Notes under the pieces: model-generated | Databases searched by the model: none | The model's input: only the letters and a program-made list of their open reading frames with translations | What the model was told of the DNA's origin: nothing | Source: a virus | Lineage: Duplodnaviria; Heunggongvirae; Uroviricota; Caudoviricetes | Length of the DNA stretch: 19,577 bases | IMG/VR virus record: IMGVR_UViG_2698536387_000012 | Direction: 5' to 3' (one strand) | Translations under genes and position numbers: made by a program | Part shown: positions 2,906-17,070 of the stretch, piece after piece | Numbering within the stretch: position 1 is the stretch's first letter | How the letters are laid out: each line of letters opens with the position of its first letter

Positions 2906-3112
2906 CTTCATTTTCACTTTTTTAAATCCAACGACAGACGGCTGGCATTTAAGTATTGTGAAATATTATCAAATGTAATCATCATTGATTTACAAAAGAT
3001 ACATTTTGCCCCGAAAGGATTCATGTCAGAAACATCAAAAGATGATGTTCTATACTGGGAACCATGACAACACGGGCATCTAAAGTGAATATGGTTTGTA
3101 ATATTGTCTACC

Positions 3113-3325
3113 TCAAAGCGCCACTACATGAACAGCGGCAGGACCTTTAGGTCCGTTCTCAATACCAAATTCAACTTCCTGATTCTCAGTTAATGTTTTG
3201 AAATCGTTGCTCTGAATTGCTGAGAAATGGACAAACACATCTTTGCTGCCATCTTTCGGCGTGATGAAACCAAAACCTTTTTCAGGGTTAAACCATTTCA
3301 CTAAACCAGTCATTTTGTTAGACAT
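3113..3325 (-). CDS. cspI: Cold-shock protein CspI, 70 aa
   Basis: [38 protein letters not shown]... carries the CspA-family RNP motifs (KGFGFI, VFVHF). Confidence 0.9.
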
Positions 3326-3686
3326 AATTATTACCTTTTGAAGAAATTAGCCCTTGGGCAGAATGGTCCGAAAAAAATATCAGAGAGAAAAACCAACAAG
3401 GAAATCTCAAGAGGTACAAATAATAAAATTATAACAATGACTGCTTCAGATAAATTTGTAACAAACCAGAACACCATTAACGCATGATTAACCACCCATA
3501 GCAAGGATTACTTTTGTAAAGAAAAACACAGCAATGAAAGAATAGCTTTATTTATTAATAAAACGTGTCATTCTGATTAAGACCTTTTATCTTACCCTTA
3601 AGATTTCAGGAATTTTGGCTCATGGAAGAGTCCTTTTTATTCAAATTTTACATTCCGCGATGTAAATGTTCCGATTTAATATTACC

Positions 3687-5714: not shown

Positions 5715-5995
5715 GAGATTGTGGTGCTTTTTGTGGGAGTCATCCACTTACGCACTTTGTTTTGCCATGCCAGCAGTTAGCTTCTGCTGTAAAACTATTC
5801 ATGCAGCAAACCTGCACTTCACCACAATGGTTAGCATACTTTTCCTGATTAAGATTTTGCCAAATATGCTAGCCATTGTTTCATGTATTGGACCTCCTTA
5901 TTTTTTATTAAAGAGATCCAATATTCACTACTCTGTCCGTATCTCTACTCAGGCATCAGCCTTCTTCGTTATCGTATACAGACGAGCGATGAATT

Positions 5996-6211
5996 TTAAT
6001 CAGTAATGATGACATTTGCTGCTGCAGGACCTTTAGCACCACTCTCTATAGAGAAGGTAACCTTTTGACCTTCAAATAAGGTTCGATAATTATCATTCTG
6101 AATCGCAGAAAAATGCACAAACACATCTTTACTACCATCAACAGGAGAAATAAAGCCGAAACCTTTATCAGCGTTAAACCATTTTACTAAACCAGTCATT
6201 TTATTTGACAT
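5996..6211 (-). CDS. cspB: Cold-shock protein CspB, 71 aa
   Basis: [71 protein letters not shown]; about 300-bp upstream non-coding leader typical of cspA-family genes. Confidence 0.9.
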
Positions 6212-6511
6212 TCTACATTCCTTAACTTGAGCCTTTCGGCATAAATGGTTTGCATAACAGAAACGACTTCGTACTTAATTGGAGAGACTCAAAGAAGGAA
6301 TAAGTGAATAACACCTGAAATGAGAACTGCTTTAGTAAACTACTTCGTATATCGTCTGTTCTTCAAACCGACGCAATCATTAACGCATAGTTGAACATAT
6401 GAAGCAATGTTTATTTTAGACATCCAGCCATCTTCAACCCCATCAAAAAACTATAGCTTTCTTCAGGAACGTGTGTATAGTGCGCCAAGTTATCAGTATT
6501 AAGGAATTTTT

Positions 6512-11597: not shown

Positions 11598-13230
11598 TTT
11601 TGTGGGGACAGTCCACAAAACTGCCAACTTCCGCTTCTTGCTCTTAGCGGACATTAGCATAGGCTATTTACCATAACGCCTCATTACGCGCACCGCCCAG
11701 ACTGACTCAGCGCGTTTCTGGCATATCCCCGGTAAAACAAGTAACAAACCACCCGAAAATGAACACCAGAAACGCGACTTAAGAATCTACCCTATGAATG
11801 GATATGCACTCAACCGAATCGATCTTGGTTTCAATCTATTTTATCGGGATCAGGCTTCTTTTTAGGTAACTTCGGGGGCTTAACTTGCTGATGACTTTGC
11901 GTTCGGCGCGTAAGCCAGGGATGGTCAGCTTTAGATTTAACATAGTATTTTGAGCGTAAATCAATACGGGCATTATCCACTCGTTCATGGACACTCTTTT
12001 CATCATCCAGTGGTATAGGCTCCGGGCCATCAACATACTTTTCCCAGCCCAGCGCTTTCCCGTCATACAGAACGTTAATTTCACCGTCAAAGTTCTCACA
12101 TACAGTAACAACCGAATGCCTAAGTCGATATCCCCGGCCCTCACTGCGTACCTGAAACGCACTGCTTTTGTACTGGAAAGTGAGATTTTTAGACAGAACG
12201 CGCTTCGCCTGTAGGCTGAAGATATAACCCAGTTCCTCTTCAGAATGGTGCACATCAAGATGAGCATTATCAGTAGTACGAGGCGACGTAGCGAACCGGT
12301 TGTTATAGGCTTCAATAAAGGTCGGCAACCATGCATTTGCTGTTTCAATATCACTGATATTCTGAAGCCGCATTTCTTTGACCAGCCTGTCCTGTAGTGT
12401 CTGATTGGCGCGCTCTACCCGCCCTTTTGCCTGCGGGCTGTTGGCATGGATTGGCTCGATGCCCAGTGTCTTTATCGCACGAGTGAACTGGGTCAGCTCA
12501 CCTTCCCGCTCTGGGTTATTTACCCTGAATATACTGTGTCTATCAGAGTAGAGAGCGAGCGGTACGCCATGATCATTAAGGTAACCCCGGAGGGTTTCCA
12601 TGTAAGCCCGGGTTGTTTCAGCAGGCACAAAACGCAACGCCATCAACGCACTGGTGGCATCATCAATGAAAACGATCAGTGTACATCTGGGGCCTCGATT
12701 TTCAAACCAGTCATGAGGTGAGCCATCAATCTGGATCAGTTCACCGTAAGATGGTCGTCGCATGCGGCGTTGATATATACGGGCAATTTTACGACGGCGT
12801 TCACGCCATAACCCCTCTTCTATCATCCACTTTCTGAGAGTTTCAACGGATAAAGATAAACCGTGTATCTCGCGCAATTTTTCGCACGCAAACGTAGGTC
12901 CAAAATCAGCGTAACGGCCTTTGAGGAGTGAAATTACTGTTGCTCTGAATTCAGTAGAAAAGGAATTATTAGGACGCTTTCCACGTCGGTGGGAAACCAG
13001 ACCAGAAGGCCCTTCATTTCTATACCGTTGCACCAGACGTTTAACCTGCCGAATAGAAATGCCAATGCGTGCCGCAGCTTGTTCCTGAGTAATATGTCGA
13101 TTAATTGACTCCTGAATAATCTGAAGTCGGTGGAGTTCCTTATGACTCATCGTAACAGTCTCTTTGATCATGAAAAATCCCCCAGAGAATTGTCTGGGGA
13201 CATTTTAGAATGGTTCAAAGGGGACATTAC
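11598..13230 (-). mobile_element. Insertion sequence carrying the transposase; boundaries are guesses
   Basis: I could not find terminal inverted repeats or target duplications. Bounds are bracketed by hairpins at 11598-11620 (TTTTGTGG-N7-CCACAAAA) and 13180-13199 (CCCCAGA-N6-TCTGGGG) and by repeated GGGGACA motifs. Confidence 0.25.
11831..13171 (-). CDS. DDE transposase with N-terminal HTH and rve/integrase-core domain (IS481/ISNCY-like), 446 aa
   Basis: N-terminal HTH (ITQEQAAARIGISIRQVKRLVQRY), catalytic core (IQIDGSPHDW...IVFIDDATS...LYSDRHSIF...KGRVERANQTL). The family call is approximate. Confidence 0.8.
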   Translation of the reverse strand: MIKETVTMSHKELHRLQIIQESINRHITQEQAAARIGISIRQVKRLVQRYRNEGPSGLVSHRRGKRPNNSFSTEFRATVISLLKGRYADFGPTFACEKLREIHGLSLSVETLRKWMIEEGLWRERRRKIARIYQRRMRRPSYGELIQIDGSPHDWFENRGPRCTLIVFIDDATSALMALRFVPAETTRAYMETLRGYLNDHGVPLALYSDRHSIFRVNNPEREGELTQFTRAIKTLGIEPIHANSPQAKGRVERANQTLQDRLVKEMRLQNISDIETANAWLPTFIEAYNNRFATSPRTTDNAHLDVHHSEEELGYIFSLQAKRVLSKNLTFQYKSSAFQVRSEGRGYRLRHSVVTVCENFDGEINVLYDGKALGWEKYVDGPEPIPLDDEKSVHERVDNARIDLRSKYYVKSKADHPWLTRRTQSHQQVKPPKLPKKKPDPDKID

Positions 13231-13624
13231 AGCTTGATGTTAACAATAGCCTGCTTCTCCTTGCCTTCCGGCACTCGCGACAGATTATGTTTAGACGACT
13301 GTCGTAGCGACGTATTTCTCCGTCAGGTAATGACCAGATAAGGTCCGGATCAACCACAGCAGGTTTCTTCACCTTTGCCCTCGAGAGTTTTTTGCGGGCG
13401 TTTTGCCAGTCCTTACGCGCCTGTTCAGACGGGAATAACCCGTAACCAGAGCTGTATACATCGCCACTGGCAACCAGCTCTCTGGCCAGAACGCTCATCA
13501 GATATCTTGTTGCCCCAGTTTTAGCTTCCAGTTGTCGTAACGTCTCGCGCCCACTCTGGCGTACGAGTTCCACCACCTGCCCTTTAATTTTTTCCCGCTC
13601 TTCTTGTGTAAAAACTTTTGCCAC
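13205..13624 (-). CDS. Hypothetical protein, 139 aa, downstream of the O-like gene; C-terminus possibly altered by the adjacent IS
   Basis: GTG at 13624 preceded by AGGAGG (4-nt spacing); the 3' end abuts the transposase region. Confidence 0.5.
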   Translation of the reverse strand: MAKVFTQEEREKIKGQVVELVRQSGRETLRQLEAKTGATRYLMSVLARELVASGDVYSSGYGLFPSEQARKDWQNARKKLSRAKVKKPAVVDPDLIWSLPDGEIRRYDSRLNIICRECRKARRSRLLLTSSCNVPFEPF

Positions 13625-13664
13625 AAGTCCTCCTGAACATTACTTTATACCCTAAAATCAACAC

Positions 13665-14630
13665 TTATCCCCTGAAACCAGGCGGAATTTCTGTATCCGG
13701 TTCAGAAATATGATTCACACAACGCTTTACAGGTGAACGTCCCAGGCGGATGACCAGTTCGTCCCATTTTTCGCGGAGTTTTGACGGGCTCATGATGTTT
13801 TTTACCCAGAATTGATCTCGCTGTACCCGACCAAACATTTCGCAAATTTGTCTGTGGCTTCTGCCATCCAGCATCCGCATTGTGCGCACGTCATTGGCCC
13901 AGGCTGTCCAGTTAGGCTCTTTTGGTCGCATGATCTCTCCATCGTCGCTGGCAGCCTGTTCGTAAAGGTTCACGATCCGCCCCCAAATCCACTGCGCACA
14001 CGCCAAATCCTCCCTGCTACCCCACTGGCGTTTTTTCGCACTAAACACAACCGCGTCGGGGTTCCGGGTTAAAAAATCCTGTTCAGCGGTCTGCGGGTCC
14101 GGTTGCGAAGCTTCCGGACGAAAAGTGTTTTTATTCTCTGTAGTAATCTCTGTTGTATTCTCTGTAAGATCATCAGGCCATTTTGACCCGATGACATTGG
14201 GTCGTTTTGAACCAATGGAGCGTTTCATTTTGACCTCTTCCATCGTGTCATTTTGACCTGATGGAGCGGCGCATTTTAAACCGATGGATTCGCTCAATTT
14301 GCCACCATCTAAAAGCTCGCTCCCGTAGTTGATCGTGTAGAAATTGGTCATATCGCGCTTTGATTTATTGAGCTTTTCACAACGCAAAAGCCCCAGCGTT
14401 TTCAGACTTGCAAACGCGCGCTTTAACGTTGACTCTGACCAGAATGGGAACTGTTCCAGCCATTGTTCCGTTGTGTTGTAAATCCAGCGAACACCATCAC
14501 ATTCCATGCCGGAATTGGTATCTCTCAACCAGTAATGCAACTGCTGCAACACAATGGCTTCATTTAAGCCAATCTTCATCGCAAGCTGTGTGTTTATAAC
14601 CAGTGGGCGTTCAGCAAAAAGAAGGCTCAT
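13665..14630 (-). CDS. Replication initiator, lambda-O-like / replisome-organizer type, 321 aa
   Basis: N-terminal MSLLFAERPLVINTQLAMKIGLNEAIVLQQLHYWL... resembles phage replisome-organizer N-domains; an iteron array sits inside the coding sequence as in lambda O. ATG at 14630 chosen; the track ORF begins at a TTG at 14684. Confidence 0.65.
   Translation of the reverse strand: MSLLFAERPLVINTQLAMKIGLNEAIVLQQLHYWLRDTNSGMECDGVRWIYNTTEQWLEQFPFWSESTLKRAFASLKTLGLLRCEKLNKSKRDMTNFYTINYGSELLDGGKLSESIGLKCAAPSGQNDTMEEVKMKRSIGSKRPNVIGSKWPDDLTENTTEITTENKNTFRPEASQPDPQTAEQDFLTRNPDAVVFSAKKRQWGSREDLACAQWIWGRIVNLYEQAASDDGEIMRPKEPNWTAWANDVRTMRMLDGRSHRQICEMFGRVQRDQFWVKNIMSPSKLREKWDELVIRLGRSPVKRCVNHISEPDTEIPPGFRG
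14134..14169. repeat. Three copies of a 12-bp tandem repeat (ttctctgtagta / atctctgttgta / ttctctgtaaga) flanking the iterons
   Basis: Read directly; encodes TEN/TEI-type repeats in the O-like protein. Confidence 0.6.
14179..14295. repeat. Five iterons at 22-24-bp spacing, consensus about TCATTTTGACCnGATGG; putative ori
   Basis: TTTTGACC-like cores start at 14181, 14205, 14227, 14251 and 14274, inside the O-like gene. Confidence 0.6.
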
Positions 14631-15132
14631 AATTCCATCCAGCTTTTTGTTGGTATTGCTGTCGATACGCAAGTTTGAAAGCAATTGCTTTTTCTATAAG
14701 TTCGTCAGTTTCACGATCCACTACGGCAGGATCAGCAAAAAGCAGTCCGGACTCCACCACATCGCCATATTCTTTGTTTAACCCGGCGATCATGTACGTG
14801 ATGCTTTTTCCGTCACTAATTTCACGATACAACCTGAAATCATTAATCCGAATAGCCTCCATAATTGCAGGCACTAGCGCCGTGAACTTTTCACGCTTAT
14901 CCCTGGTGTCGATAGCCTTCCAGCGTTCGAATATCTTCACTCGATTAACGCCAAGTGCTCGCTGATCAACCGCGCCACCTTCATCTGTGACACGCTGAAC
15001 ATCGATGTTCGGGCGCTCTTTCAAAGCCCAGAATGCTTCAGTGATTAATATCGTCGCCTGCTCCTGTGTCATTCCTGGTCGACATATCCAGGCATCCAGA
15101 GCCTCACGAGCCTGTTCAGGAGTGATTTTCAT
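14611..15132 (-). CDS. YdaT-like protein (cII position between Cro-like and O-like genes), 173 aa
   Basis: ORF MKITPEQAREALDAWICRPGMTQEQATILITEAF...; position mirrors ydaT of the Rac prophage; start overlaps the dicC 3' end by 17 nt; weak SD. Confidence 0.5.
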   Translation of the reverse strand: MKITPEQAREALDAWICRPGMTQEQATILITEAFWALKERPNIDVQRVTDEGGAVDQRALGVNRVKIFERWKAIDTRDKREKFTALVPAIMEAIRINDFRLYREISDGKSITYMIAGLNKEYGDVVESGLLFADPAVVDRETDELIEKAIAFKLAYRQQYQQKAGWNYEPSFC

Positions 15133-15343
15133 TGTTCAACCGCCCCGCCCGCTTCGTCTTACGATATTCGTCATAAACCTTGGGATCATACAGAAGCTCG
15201 CCGCCAGATGCCTCCTGTAGACGCATCGCGCGACCTTCAGGAACCAGCTCTTGCCATTGAGAAACAGCAGATGGGTCAACGCCAGCAGCTTTCGCTACTT
15301 TGGCTTTCGTACCGTAAAAATTAATTACGTCTGATTTAAACAT
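15116..15343 (-). CDS. dicC: DicC (Cro-like regulator), 75 aa
   Basis: ATG at 15343 preceded by GGAGGTG; C-terminus ...VPEGRAMRLQEASGGELLYDPKVYDEYRKTKRAGRLNNENHS matches DicC as recalled; divergent from dicA. Confidence 0.75.
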   Translation of the reverse strand: MFKSDVINFYGTKAKVAKAAGVDPSAVSQWQELVPEGRAMRLQEASGGELLYDPKVYDEYRKTKRAGRLNNENHS

Positions 15344-15356
15344 CGCACCTCCAATA

Positions 15357-15370
15357 TTGAGTTTTCTCAA
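15357..15370. promoter_or_regulatory. Operator-like palindrome TTGAG-TTTT-CTCAA in the dicC-dicA intergenic region
   Basis: Read directly; near-identical copies occur at 15893-15906 and, inverted, at 15927-15941. Confidence 0.5.
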
Positions 15371-15420
15371 TGCTAATCACTCAAGGAATCTCAAGTCAAG
15401 GGTTATTAAGATATCTAAAT

Positions 15421-17012: not shown

Positions 17013-17070
17013 TTTCTGGTGACGTTTGGCGGTATCAGTTTTACTCCGTGACTGCTCTGCCGCCCTTTTT
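17013..17070 (+). ncRNA. dicF: DicF small RNA (cell-division inhibitor sRNA)
   Basis: Matches DicF as I recall it: UUUCUGGUGACGUUUGGCGGUAUCAGUUUUACUCCGUGACUGCUCUGCCGCCCUUUUU; ends in a terminator-like stem plus U-tract; sits upstream of dicB. Confidence 0.85.

Follow-up and report, generated by a model that had tools for sequence, protein, structure and literature searches.

The question raised by virus record IMGVR_UViG_2698536387_000012, a stretch of 19,577 nucleotides from the Caudoviricetes to which we refer in its whole length as the window, is whether a gene coding for a putative replication initiator also houses the origin at which replication starts. A first, sequence-only reading of the window had noticed spaced repeats within this gene and proposed a lambda-type origin there. 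From the sequence and its comparison across phages we consider it probable that a Qin-like lambdoid prophage of Escherichia coli has its vegetative replication origin in the repeat array and the 12-bp repeats beside it (12-mers), inside the prophage's own initiator gene. The features discussed are collected in Table 1.

Iterons inside the initiator gene

Read on the plus strand, five direct repeats of ~23 bp (iterons) span positions 14171–14286 with start-to-start steps of 24, 23, 23 and 23 bp, as the sequence-only reading had seen. The sequence TTTTGACC stands without change in three of them (14181, 14228 and 14251), and the remaining two have TTTTGAAC (14205) and TTTTAAAC (14274), with one or two changes. 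In gene orientation the repeat unit is tCCATCa-GGTCAAAATG-acacGATg, in which two dyads are nested, an inner GGTCA-AAA-TGACC within an outer CCATC...GATGG; the 'GATGG-like' element reported earlier is real, and is the outer arm of this nested dyad. The inner dyad is complete in iteron 2 (GGTCA-AAA-TGAC), while the 5′ flank of iteron 3, TGGAAGA, is unlike the CCATC flank of the other copies. These dyad-symmetric direct repeats, five and one vestigial, lie in the middle of the gene (nucleotides 345–460 of 966), and relatives (mEp460_4F5, Klebsiella, Enterobacter) have a good copy at the position of the vestigial sixth. The extent first proposed for the array and 12-mers, 14134–14295, came close to the measured one, which is 14132–14286, or up to 14309 with the vestigial copy.

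For a test against chance, the core GGTCAAAATG was taken from unrelated phages and matched with up to two mismatches, and same-strand chains were scored at a spacing of 21–25 bp. The window holds a single chain, of five core matches, whereas dinucleotide-preserving shuffles (n = 1000) gave a best chain of one match in 902 cases, of two in 97 and of three in 1. By itself TTTTGACC shows no enrichment across the window (33 matches against 25 expected), so the significance lies in the phased cluster. No other repeat cluster was seen in the module around the initiator gene, and DnaA boxes are not enriched and do not occur at the array.

Since the 23-bp period is no multiple of three, the same iteron core is read in three frames, as G-Q-N-D, V-K-M and S-K-[W/C/R]. 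The consensus would give a TGA stop in the third frame, and the three copies standing there read TGC (iteron 1), CGA and TGG. Of the four departures from the core consensus, three abolish this TGA and the fourth is the TTA of iteron 1. Flanking positions that played no part in site selection are conserved in relatives as well: among 90 distinct sites, 96% have A at −4 and 87% have T at +17. The iterons are thus DNA-level elements, constrained as DNA, and they co-occur and co-vary with the N-terminal domain (N-domain) of the initiator.

Their co-occurrence was followed in both directions. The core GGTCAAAATG also stands after a homologous N-domain in a Staphylococcus phage, the S. aureus phage fPfSau02, whose N-domain, with 50% identity, is followed by three copies of GAGGTCAAAATG at 22–23 bp. 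An IMG/VR scan for two cores 11–15 bp apart gave 80 loci, 65 of them in open reading frames (ORFs) with the initiator's N-domain; most of the other 15 lie in different winged-helix, initiator-like ORFs with an S-x-S-T-[VL]-K-R helix motif. For the forward test, a search with the N-domain, one genome per species was used, since 80 loci retrieved from IMG/VR by the N-domain are near-identical in it (79 at 100% and one at 99%). Its 80 loci come from Enterobacterales, Pseudomonas, Acinetobacter, Comamonas, Bacillaceae, Lactobacillaceae, Staphylococcus and Tissierellia. In the genomes of these 80 species the exact core is ~80-fold denser directly past the N-domain than elsewhere (3.1 vs 0.038 per kb), and an array of at least three copies with a ~23-bp period follows the N-domain at 54 of 79 loci and in none of the control regions (0/78 and 0/77, or 0/155 regions). 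In loci without this core, other dyad iterons were found in the same place (GGGCAAATTGCCC/GTGCAAATTGCAC, GGACAATTTGTCC, GATCAAAATGATC and ACCCAAAATGGGT). The iterons also vary with the protein: the helix residue before the conserved Thr goes with base 3 of the half-site, Ser with T (17/18), Asp with G (14/14), Lys with A (3/3) and Asn with C (2/2), at a chi-square p of ~1e-13, uncorrected for phylogeny.

Five loci (L119, which is IMGVR 3300036790_000208, and L120, L149, L155 and L166) code for very different winged-helix, initiator-like proteins, one of them from a high-G+C host, and hold 3–6 copies of an identical GGTCAAAATGAC core; here conservation is stronger in the site than in the proteins presumed to read it. 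Tandem repeats with GGTCAAAATGAC also occur at 13800–13960 of a giant-virus contig (IMGVR GVMAG-S-ERX556119-27, L116), in a zinc-finger-like ORF with the repeated peptide KMTMEGCQNDKPLV, and are probably unrelated to initiators.

A conserved 12-bp element after the last iteron

Three 12-bp tandem repeats come directly after the iterons in gene orientation, where the sequence-only reading had also placed them. Tandem Repeats Finder (TRF) reports them at 14135–14166 (period 12, 2.7 copies, 85% matches). The GC content of 14120–14179 is 0.35, and among 40-bp segments of 13601–14740 ranked by nearest-neighbour stability, all 11 least stable ones begin at 14120–14132. The repeats are real and non-random, and the 12-mers stand both at the position of the unwinding region of lambda and at the stability minimum. 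A GATC (Dam) site at 14167–14170 marks exactly where the last iteron meets the 12-mers (GATGATCTTACAGAG); a junction GATC is found in many enterobacterial relatives too (CGATCTTACAG, GATGATCCTACAG), but not in Gram-positive ones.

The codons of the 12-mers were compared in 39 species, with the units defined at peptide level. Glu is encoded by GAG in 96 of 96 cases within the units, compared with 47% GAG outside them, and further codons are frozen likewise (Thr as AC[AT] in 198/199, Asn as AAT in 39/40, Ile as ATT in 42/42 and Lys as AAG in 8/8). The encoded residues differ (T/P/S/A and N/I/T/S) where the DNA holds nCA and AnT, and one reading frame is used by 116 of 124 units.

These repeats are not private to this phage but are an element common to many unrelated phage origins. 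The O gene of a Shiga toxin (Stx) phage, otherwise unrelated, has four copies with 97.5% identity over 40 bp, and Bacillus phages show 86% identity to the 12-mers, with three copies behind different iterons in BtCS33. Among IMG/VR loci with two perfect units, 99 of 102 lie in ORFs of at least 150 amino acids (aa), and the N-domains of these ORFs belong to at least four initiator families. The A+T-rich units are kept in hosts of 59–63% G+C (Pseudomonas, L238; Comamonas, L248). A non-coding copy is found in plasmid pBSG3 (NC_014104; L291 745–845), a Rep_1 rolling-circle plasmid of Bacillus amyloliquefaciens, where three CCTACAGGGAAAG repeats ~22–23 bp apart are followed by three TTACAGAGATTAC units. 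The cassette lies ~370 bp upstream of the double-strand origin (dso), and its only ORF, of 63 aa, reads the 12-mers in another frame as LQRL. No matching winged-helix initiator is encoded by pBSG3. A phage initiator acting in trans might use the cassette as a second origin, or the cassette might belong to the single-strand origin. Because synonymous sites are frozen while residues vary, and because of the non-coding copy in pBSG3, we regard the 12-mer block as a DNA element, and we propose it as a putative unwinding or helicase-entry segment.

A broader proposal is tentative, and on the whole we would sooner expect it to fail than to hold. It is that nCAGAGAWTACW might be a sequence-specific, initiator-independent origin element of many Gram-positive and Gram-negative temperate phages and of some plasmids, always directly after iterons, and read by a common host or protein factor (e.g. 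as single-stranded DNA (ssDNA) at helicase/primase entry) rather than being a mere A+T spacer; in addition, a near one-residue, one-base recognition rule (S–T, D–G, K–A, N–C) would apply in the winged-helix family.

The 12-mers, though not the iterons, could instead be chiefly a module-boundary homology patch, at which cassettes of N-domain and iterons recombine with other C-terminal domains (C-domains), and could have spread by this exchange. Nucleotide similarity to Klebsiella and Stx phages starts and stops exactly at the 12-mers (query 533–536), several C-domains are joined through the same 12-mers to N-domains of at least four families, and a chimeric Rep with exchanged N-domain and ori is documented for pPR9/pSK41 in passages of PMC5703833. 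A patch, however, has no need for bases frozen across Firmicutes and Proteobacteria, for an A+T-rich make-up in G+C-rich hosts or for a fixed place after the last iteron, and the pBSG3 copy links no protein modules. As the main reason for the 12-mers we think it unlikely; the patch and unwinding roles are compatible, neither excluding the other.

Table 1. Position of the putative origin elements, initiator domains and neighbouring genes in the window
Feature	Position	Strand	Details
Initiator gene	13665–14630	minus	321 aa; ATG at 14630; stop included
N-terminal DNA-binding domain, putative	14307–14630	minus	aa 1–108
Linker	14094–14306	minus	aa 109–179; houses iterons and 12-mers
Vestigial sixth iteron	14287–14309	minus	core TGGCAAATTG at 14295–14304; 3 mismatches
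Iteron 1 (first in gene orientation)	14264–14286	minus	core GTTTAAAATG at 14272–14281; translated G-L-K-C
Iteron 2	14241–14263	minus	perfect core GGTCAAAATG at 14249–14258; translated G-Q-N-D
Iteron 3	14218–14240	minus	perfect core at 14226–14235; translated V-K-M
Iteron 4	14195–14217	minus	core GTTCAAAACG at 14203–14212; translated S-K-R; CGA instead of TGA
Iteron 5 (adjoins 12-mers)	14171–14193	minus	perfect core at 14179–14188; translated S-K-W; TGG instead of TGA
Three 12-bp tandem repeats	14132–14167	minus	gene strand ACAGAGAATACA / ACAGAGATTACT / ACAGAGAATAAA; peptide TENT-TEIT-TENK
Least stable duplex of gene	14120–14171		12-mers and adjoining AAAAACACTTTT
C-terminal domain	13743–14084	minus	aa 183–296
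C-terminal tail	13668–13730	minus	VKRCVNHISEPDTEIPPGFRG
Downstream gene	13205–13624	minus	DUF977, Ren-like (LygF); Pfam DUF977 E 3.5e-22; PHROG 142
Early-right operon	14611–15399	minus	promoter-like site 15399–15370; Cro-like gene 15116–15370; YdaT/CII-like gene 14611–15132

A hybrid initiator and its known counterparts

The initiator matches PHROG 391, 'replication initiation O-like', with residues 17–321 on profile positions 11–298 of 298 (E 1e-92), and no Pfam family matches it as a whole at E ≤ 0.01. Its 4267 homologues go by the NCBI name 'hypothetical protein'; of 5426 complete E. coli genomes, 3977 contain some match and 1746 one with at least 80% coverage. The protein is a hybrid of a predicted winged-helix N-domain, a disordered linker encoded by the putative origin, a lambda-O-type C-domain and a DnaT-like tail.

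In the AlphaFold model (AF2) the N-domain has the order H-H-b-b-H-H-b-b, with a winged helix at residues 10–100 (predicted local distance difference test, pLDDT, 60–83) and a putative recognition helix at residues 66–78, SESTLKRAFASLK. The top folds found in the PDB with Foldseek are the RepA_N initiators 4PQL, 5KBJ (a Rep–DNA complex) and 4PT7, followed by the DnaD N-terminal domain 2V79; the RepA_N matches are marginal (E 0.04–0.09, probability 1.0, TM 0.54, none at E ≤ 0.001) and come from a model of moderate confidence. Searched alone against Pfam Phage_rep_O (PF04492), RepA_N (PF06970) and HTH_36, the N-domain gives no match even at E ≤ 10. The earlier description of the gene as O-like therefore holds for its C-domain, which is homologous to lambda O, and fails for its N-domain. 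Residues 109–179 are predicted to be disordered (pLDDT ~25), and this is exactly the part encoded by iterons and 12-mers; a disordered linker would leave the DNA free to carry cis signals. The model of the C-domain is helical (pLDDT 73) and gave no informative fold match, the whole-protein model shows the tail as disordered, and a profile of 15 homologues found nothing among PDB sequences.

The tail shares 16 of 21 residues with the extreme C-terminus of E. coli DnaT (residues 159–179, its final 21; phmmer against PDB), and the tails of relatives are alike (...IPAGFRG or VPAGFRS). The sole NCBIfam match of the initiator, NF002770 (DnaT), covers residues 301–321 only (E 0.003; 17.1 bits against a cut-off of 201). 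Nothing else of DnaT matches, a fold search with the C-domain model did not retrieve DnaT, and the initiator is not a member of the DnaT family. Some phage records carry the RAST label 'Primosomal protein I', for which the tail, with no second DnaT similarity found here, is probably the sole basis. The PHROGs of other initiator families (phrog_18526, 3729 and 1701) match this tail only, which looks like a portable docking peptide.

Comparison with lambda supports the proposal of a lambda-style intragenic origin. In both, the origin lies within the initiator gene between a DNA-binding N-domain and the C-domain, dyad iterons contain an A-tract (lambda TCCCTCAAAACGAGGGA, here GGTCAAAATGACC), and in gene orientation the last iteron is followed by a segment that should melt easily. 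BLASTP shows the C-domains to be homologous (initiator residues 147–294 with lambda O 135–270, 34% identity, E 3e-28). In the alignment the origin elements correspond position by position, the last iteron (IGSKWP) lying over the peptide of lambda iteron 3/4 (LGDCYPSKQG), and TENTTEITTENK over DTKDTITKEKRKD, the A+T-rich tract beside lambda iteron 4. Aligned in this way, the 12-mers appear as the positional counterpart of the A+T-rich region at which lambda unwinds, two iterons and the tract being enough for unwinding (PMC7466680). The early-right operon order Cro–CII–O, with a Ren-like gene after the initiator, is common to both. Lambda ori, however, has four iterons and an A+T-rich tract in the middle of gene O, against five to six iterons here; the iteron sequence differs, and the period is 23 bp here and about 20–24 in lambda; where lambda has a long A-rich tract, the putative unwinding segment here consists of 12-bp tandem repeats of ~67% A+T. 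The N-domain, which lacks a Phage_rep_O match, cannot be aligned to lambda O by BLASTP, the P gene is absent, and lambda O is without the DnaT-like tail.

The RepA_N initiators of plasmids from Gram-positive bacteria (pSK41 and pTZ2162 Rep) and Vibrio PLE RepA share with this one a three-part protein and an ori that is central in the initiator gene. Passages of PMC5703833 describe a winged-helix N-terminal domain that binds Rep boxes central in rep, a host-specific C-terminal domain and, in pSK41 Rep, a central domain that is an ori-encoded, dispensable linker; RepA_N iterons appear in passages of PMC7145576 as inverted repeats converging on a poly-A tract. The same layout is seen here, with a central putative ori that encodes the linker and inverted iteron arms that converge on an A-tract. 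The structural likeness is nevertheless marginal and PF06970 gives no match, the C-domain is lambda-O-like here and DnaD-like in RepA_N, and the setting is a phage of enterobacteria, where RepA_N is rare as described in passages of PMC7145576. The passages on RepA_N origins do not mention 12-mers.

'Replication protein O' of an Stx phage (LC567818, PHROG 270) and ORF36, 'replication protein O', of BtCS33 consist, as here, of an N-domain, their own iterons, ACAGAGAWTACW repeats (4 and 3 copies) and a C-domain, that of BtCS33 being homologous to the C-domain of the window's initiator (SPSKLR.[KQ]WD.L). Their N-domains and iterons are unrelated to those here (GGGAAAC-type in the Stx phage, GAGGCTCCCACAYTRAAACG in BtCS33), and both initiators have helicase or loader genes next to them, whereas this module has none. 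Initiator-binding repeats beside a short tandem-repeat unwinding element are also known from iteron plasmids of the RK2/R6K class and from E. coli oriC with its 13-mers, although these origins are intergenic and have no sequence relation to this one. Rep proteins can bind one strand of the repeated 13-mer unwinding element. Lambda O binds ssDNA (PMC7466680). What sets this locus apart is the combination of a lambda-O C-domain with an unclassified RepA_N-like winged helix and its own iterons, a conserved 12-mer, no P gene and a DnaT-like tail.

Proposed action of the origin, prophage setting and significance

We infer the following course of events, from binding and 12-mer melting to the helicase route and activity in this strain. 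Upon derepression, the early-right operon would produce the 321-aa initiator, whose N-terminal winged-helix dimers would bind the five (vestigially six) 23-bp iterons. The nucleoprotein complex would strain the adjoining least-stable segment, the three 12-mers would melt, and the lambda-O-type C-domain and DnaT-like tail would then recruit the host helicase. Neither here nor in HannyBb, mEp460_ev081, mEp460_4F5 or the Klebsiella phage ST147-VIM1phi7.2 does a gene for a P-like loader or a helicase come after that of the initiator, so loading would go via host DnaB–DnaC; our conjecture is that the initiator uses this pair, perhaps via the partner of the DnaT tail. The downstream ORF named in the sequence-only reading codes for a DUF977/Ren-like protein and not for a P-like helicase loader. 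A promoter scan found only one pR-like site, upstream of the Cro-like gene, and a CI-like repressor gene is divergent from the operon. The operon would transcribe through the origin, and by analogy with lambda this transcription may have a role here. The initiator ATG lies 20 nt within the end of the YdaT/CII-like ORF (overlap 14611–14630), which suggests that the two are translationally coupled.

Several points weigh against a vegetative origin that works in this way. The 12-mers are only ~67% A+T, and their conservation may have another cause. Covariation and codon counts are uncorrected for shared ancestry or horizontal transfer, and the evidence from folds is weak (Foldseek E ~0.04, whole-model mean pLDDT 57). 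At 25 of the 79 homologous loci there is no clear array; these include ~8 Bacillaceae genes with the same helix motif, so the N-domain is not always accompanied by in-gene iterons. Among Bacillus and Neobacillus homologues, L249, L252, L258, L260, L266 and L282 have the same recognition-helix motif, FWSESTIKR, but lack iterons and 12-mers both inside the gene and up to 1.5 kb from it; their origin lies in another place or they are not initiators. The helicase-loading route is conjecture, and the passages of a 2026 preprimosome paper and a 2018 review do not state the partner of the extreme C-terminus of DnaT. Searches of the full-text literature, which did not extend to older subscription papers, met the iteron core and the 12-mer (with their reverse complements) only in primers and unrelated matches, with no replication context, while searches by concept found work on lambda, Stx and RepA_N and none on this initiator family.

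The origin could be intact and yet a fossil in this genome, if a defective Qin-type prophage no longer replicates. In a strain with a 100%-identical segment the element lies beside rspB/ynfA with many K-12 Qin genes, and an insertion sequence (IS) transposase ORF (11831–13171, minus strand, 446 aa, with helix-turn-helix and rve_3 integrase core) immediately follows the DUF977 gene, with the annotation IS1202-like ISEsa1, partial, in strain AR_0369. However, mEp460_ev081 appears to have the same gene of IS size (449 aa, opposite strand) between LygF and mokW, and with a gene of similar size at the same place IS insertion seems to be tolerated by the phage. The initiator ORF is full-length and differs by 2 residues from that of mEp460_ev081 and by 8 from that of HannyBb, a match to phage PhiR42_1 at 98.5% extends over 85% of the window, and terminase, integrase and excisionase flank the region in the identical strain. 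Identity over 541 bp around the array is 100% with mEp460_ev081, 99.1% with HannyBb and 97.4% with PhiR42_1, so that the repeats, for which the sequence-only reading had advised a check in relatives, are present in all three; the order initiator–LygF is the same in HannyBb and mEp460_ev081, and the same type of origin is present in E. coli, Klebsiella and Enterobacter records of circular ~40-kb 'plasmids'. As far as its sequence goes, this prophage offers no reason to think its origin dead, and we rate a fossil as rather improbable.

The Rac prophage with oriJ, suggested by YdaS/YdaT-like neighbours, was rejected as a candidate, the locus being Qin-type beside rspB/ynfA, and ydaU was left out of the comparison. 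The window also contains a DicF antisense small RNA at 17014–17065 (plus strand; Rfam RF00039, 76.7 bits), which is expected in a Qin-type prophage beside dicB/ydfD. Two cspA-type thermoregulator 5′ leaders (RF01766), at 5980–6372 (158.8 bits) and 3086–3470 (114.2 bits), both on the minus strand, belong to prophage cold-shock genes that are annotated cspB and cspI in the identical strain.

Alternatively, the iterons might be true initiator sites whose main function is control, be it autoregulation, titration or handcuffing, or the exclusion of related phages, with replication starting elsewhere in the prophage. Plasmid iterons are generally known to serve both initiation and control (see passages of PMC3401445), the ~8 Bacillaceae homologues work without in-gene iterons, and strand opening is a prediction. 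Against this, the array stands exactly at the position of lambda ori in a homologous protein frame and beside the stability minimum, iterons and 12-mers are kept as one cassette across initiator families and stand alone in non-coding plasmid DNA, and no second repeat cluster was seen in the module around the gene; we hold a main role in control to be quite improbable. A further alternative, in which the repeats belong to a flexible linker peptide, are maintained for the sake of the protein and have no cis role, agrees with their place in a predicted disordered linker and with a 12-bp period that is a multiple of three and nearly always in one frame, but is already contradicted by 23-bp units that give unrelated peptides in three frames, by synonymous codons fixed despite varying residues and by the 12-mers in non-coding DNA of pBSG3, and has next to no probability left.

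We therefore retain the vegetative origin as our explanation of the array and 12-mers. If only its ordinary part is true, the locus adds another example to the lambda-style origins, and the sequence-only reading had recognized it correctly. The initiator is present with at least 80% coverage in about one third of complete E. coli genomes, and its origin and domain logic make a very common prophage replicon readable. The origins at which the 12-mer recurs belong to unrelated initiators and range from Staphylococcus and Bacillus to Escherichia and Pseudomonas, which points to a shared, as yet unnamed step of origin opening or helicase/primase entry. A lambda-O-type C-domain without a P partner but with a DnaT tail suggests a route from a phage origin into the helicase-loading machinery of the host. 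The covariation of helix residue and iteron base offers a handle on the evolution of origin specificity and phage incompatibility, and the recognition rule, if true, would make origin specificity predictable and open to re-engineering.

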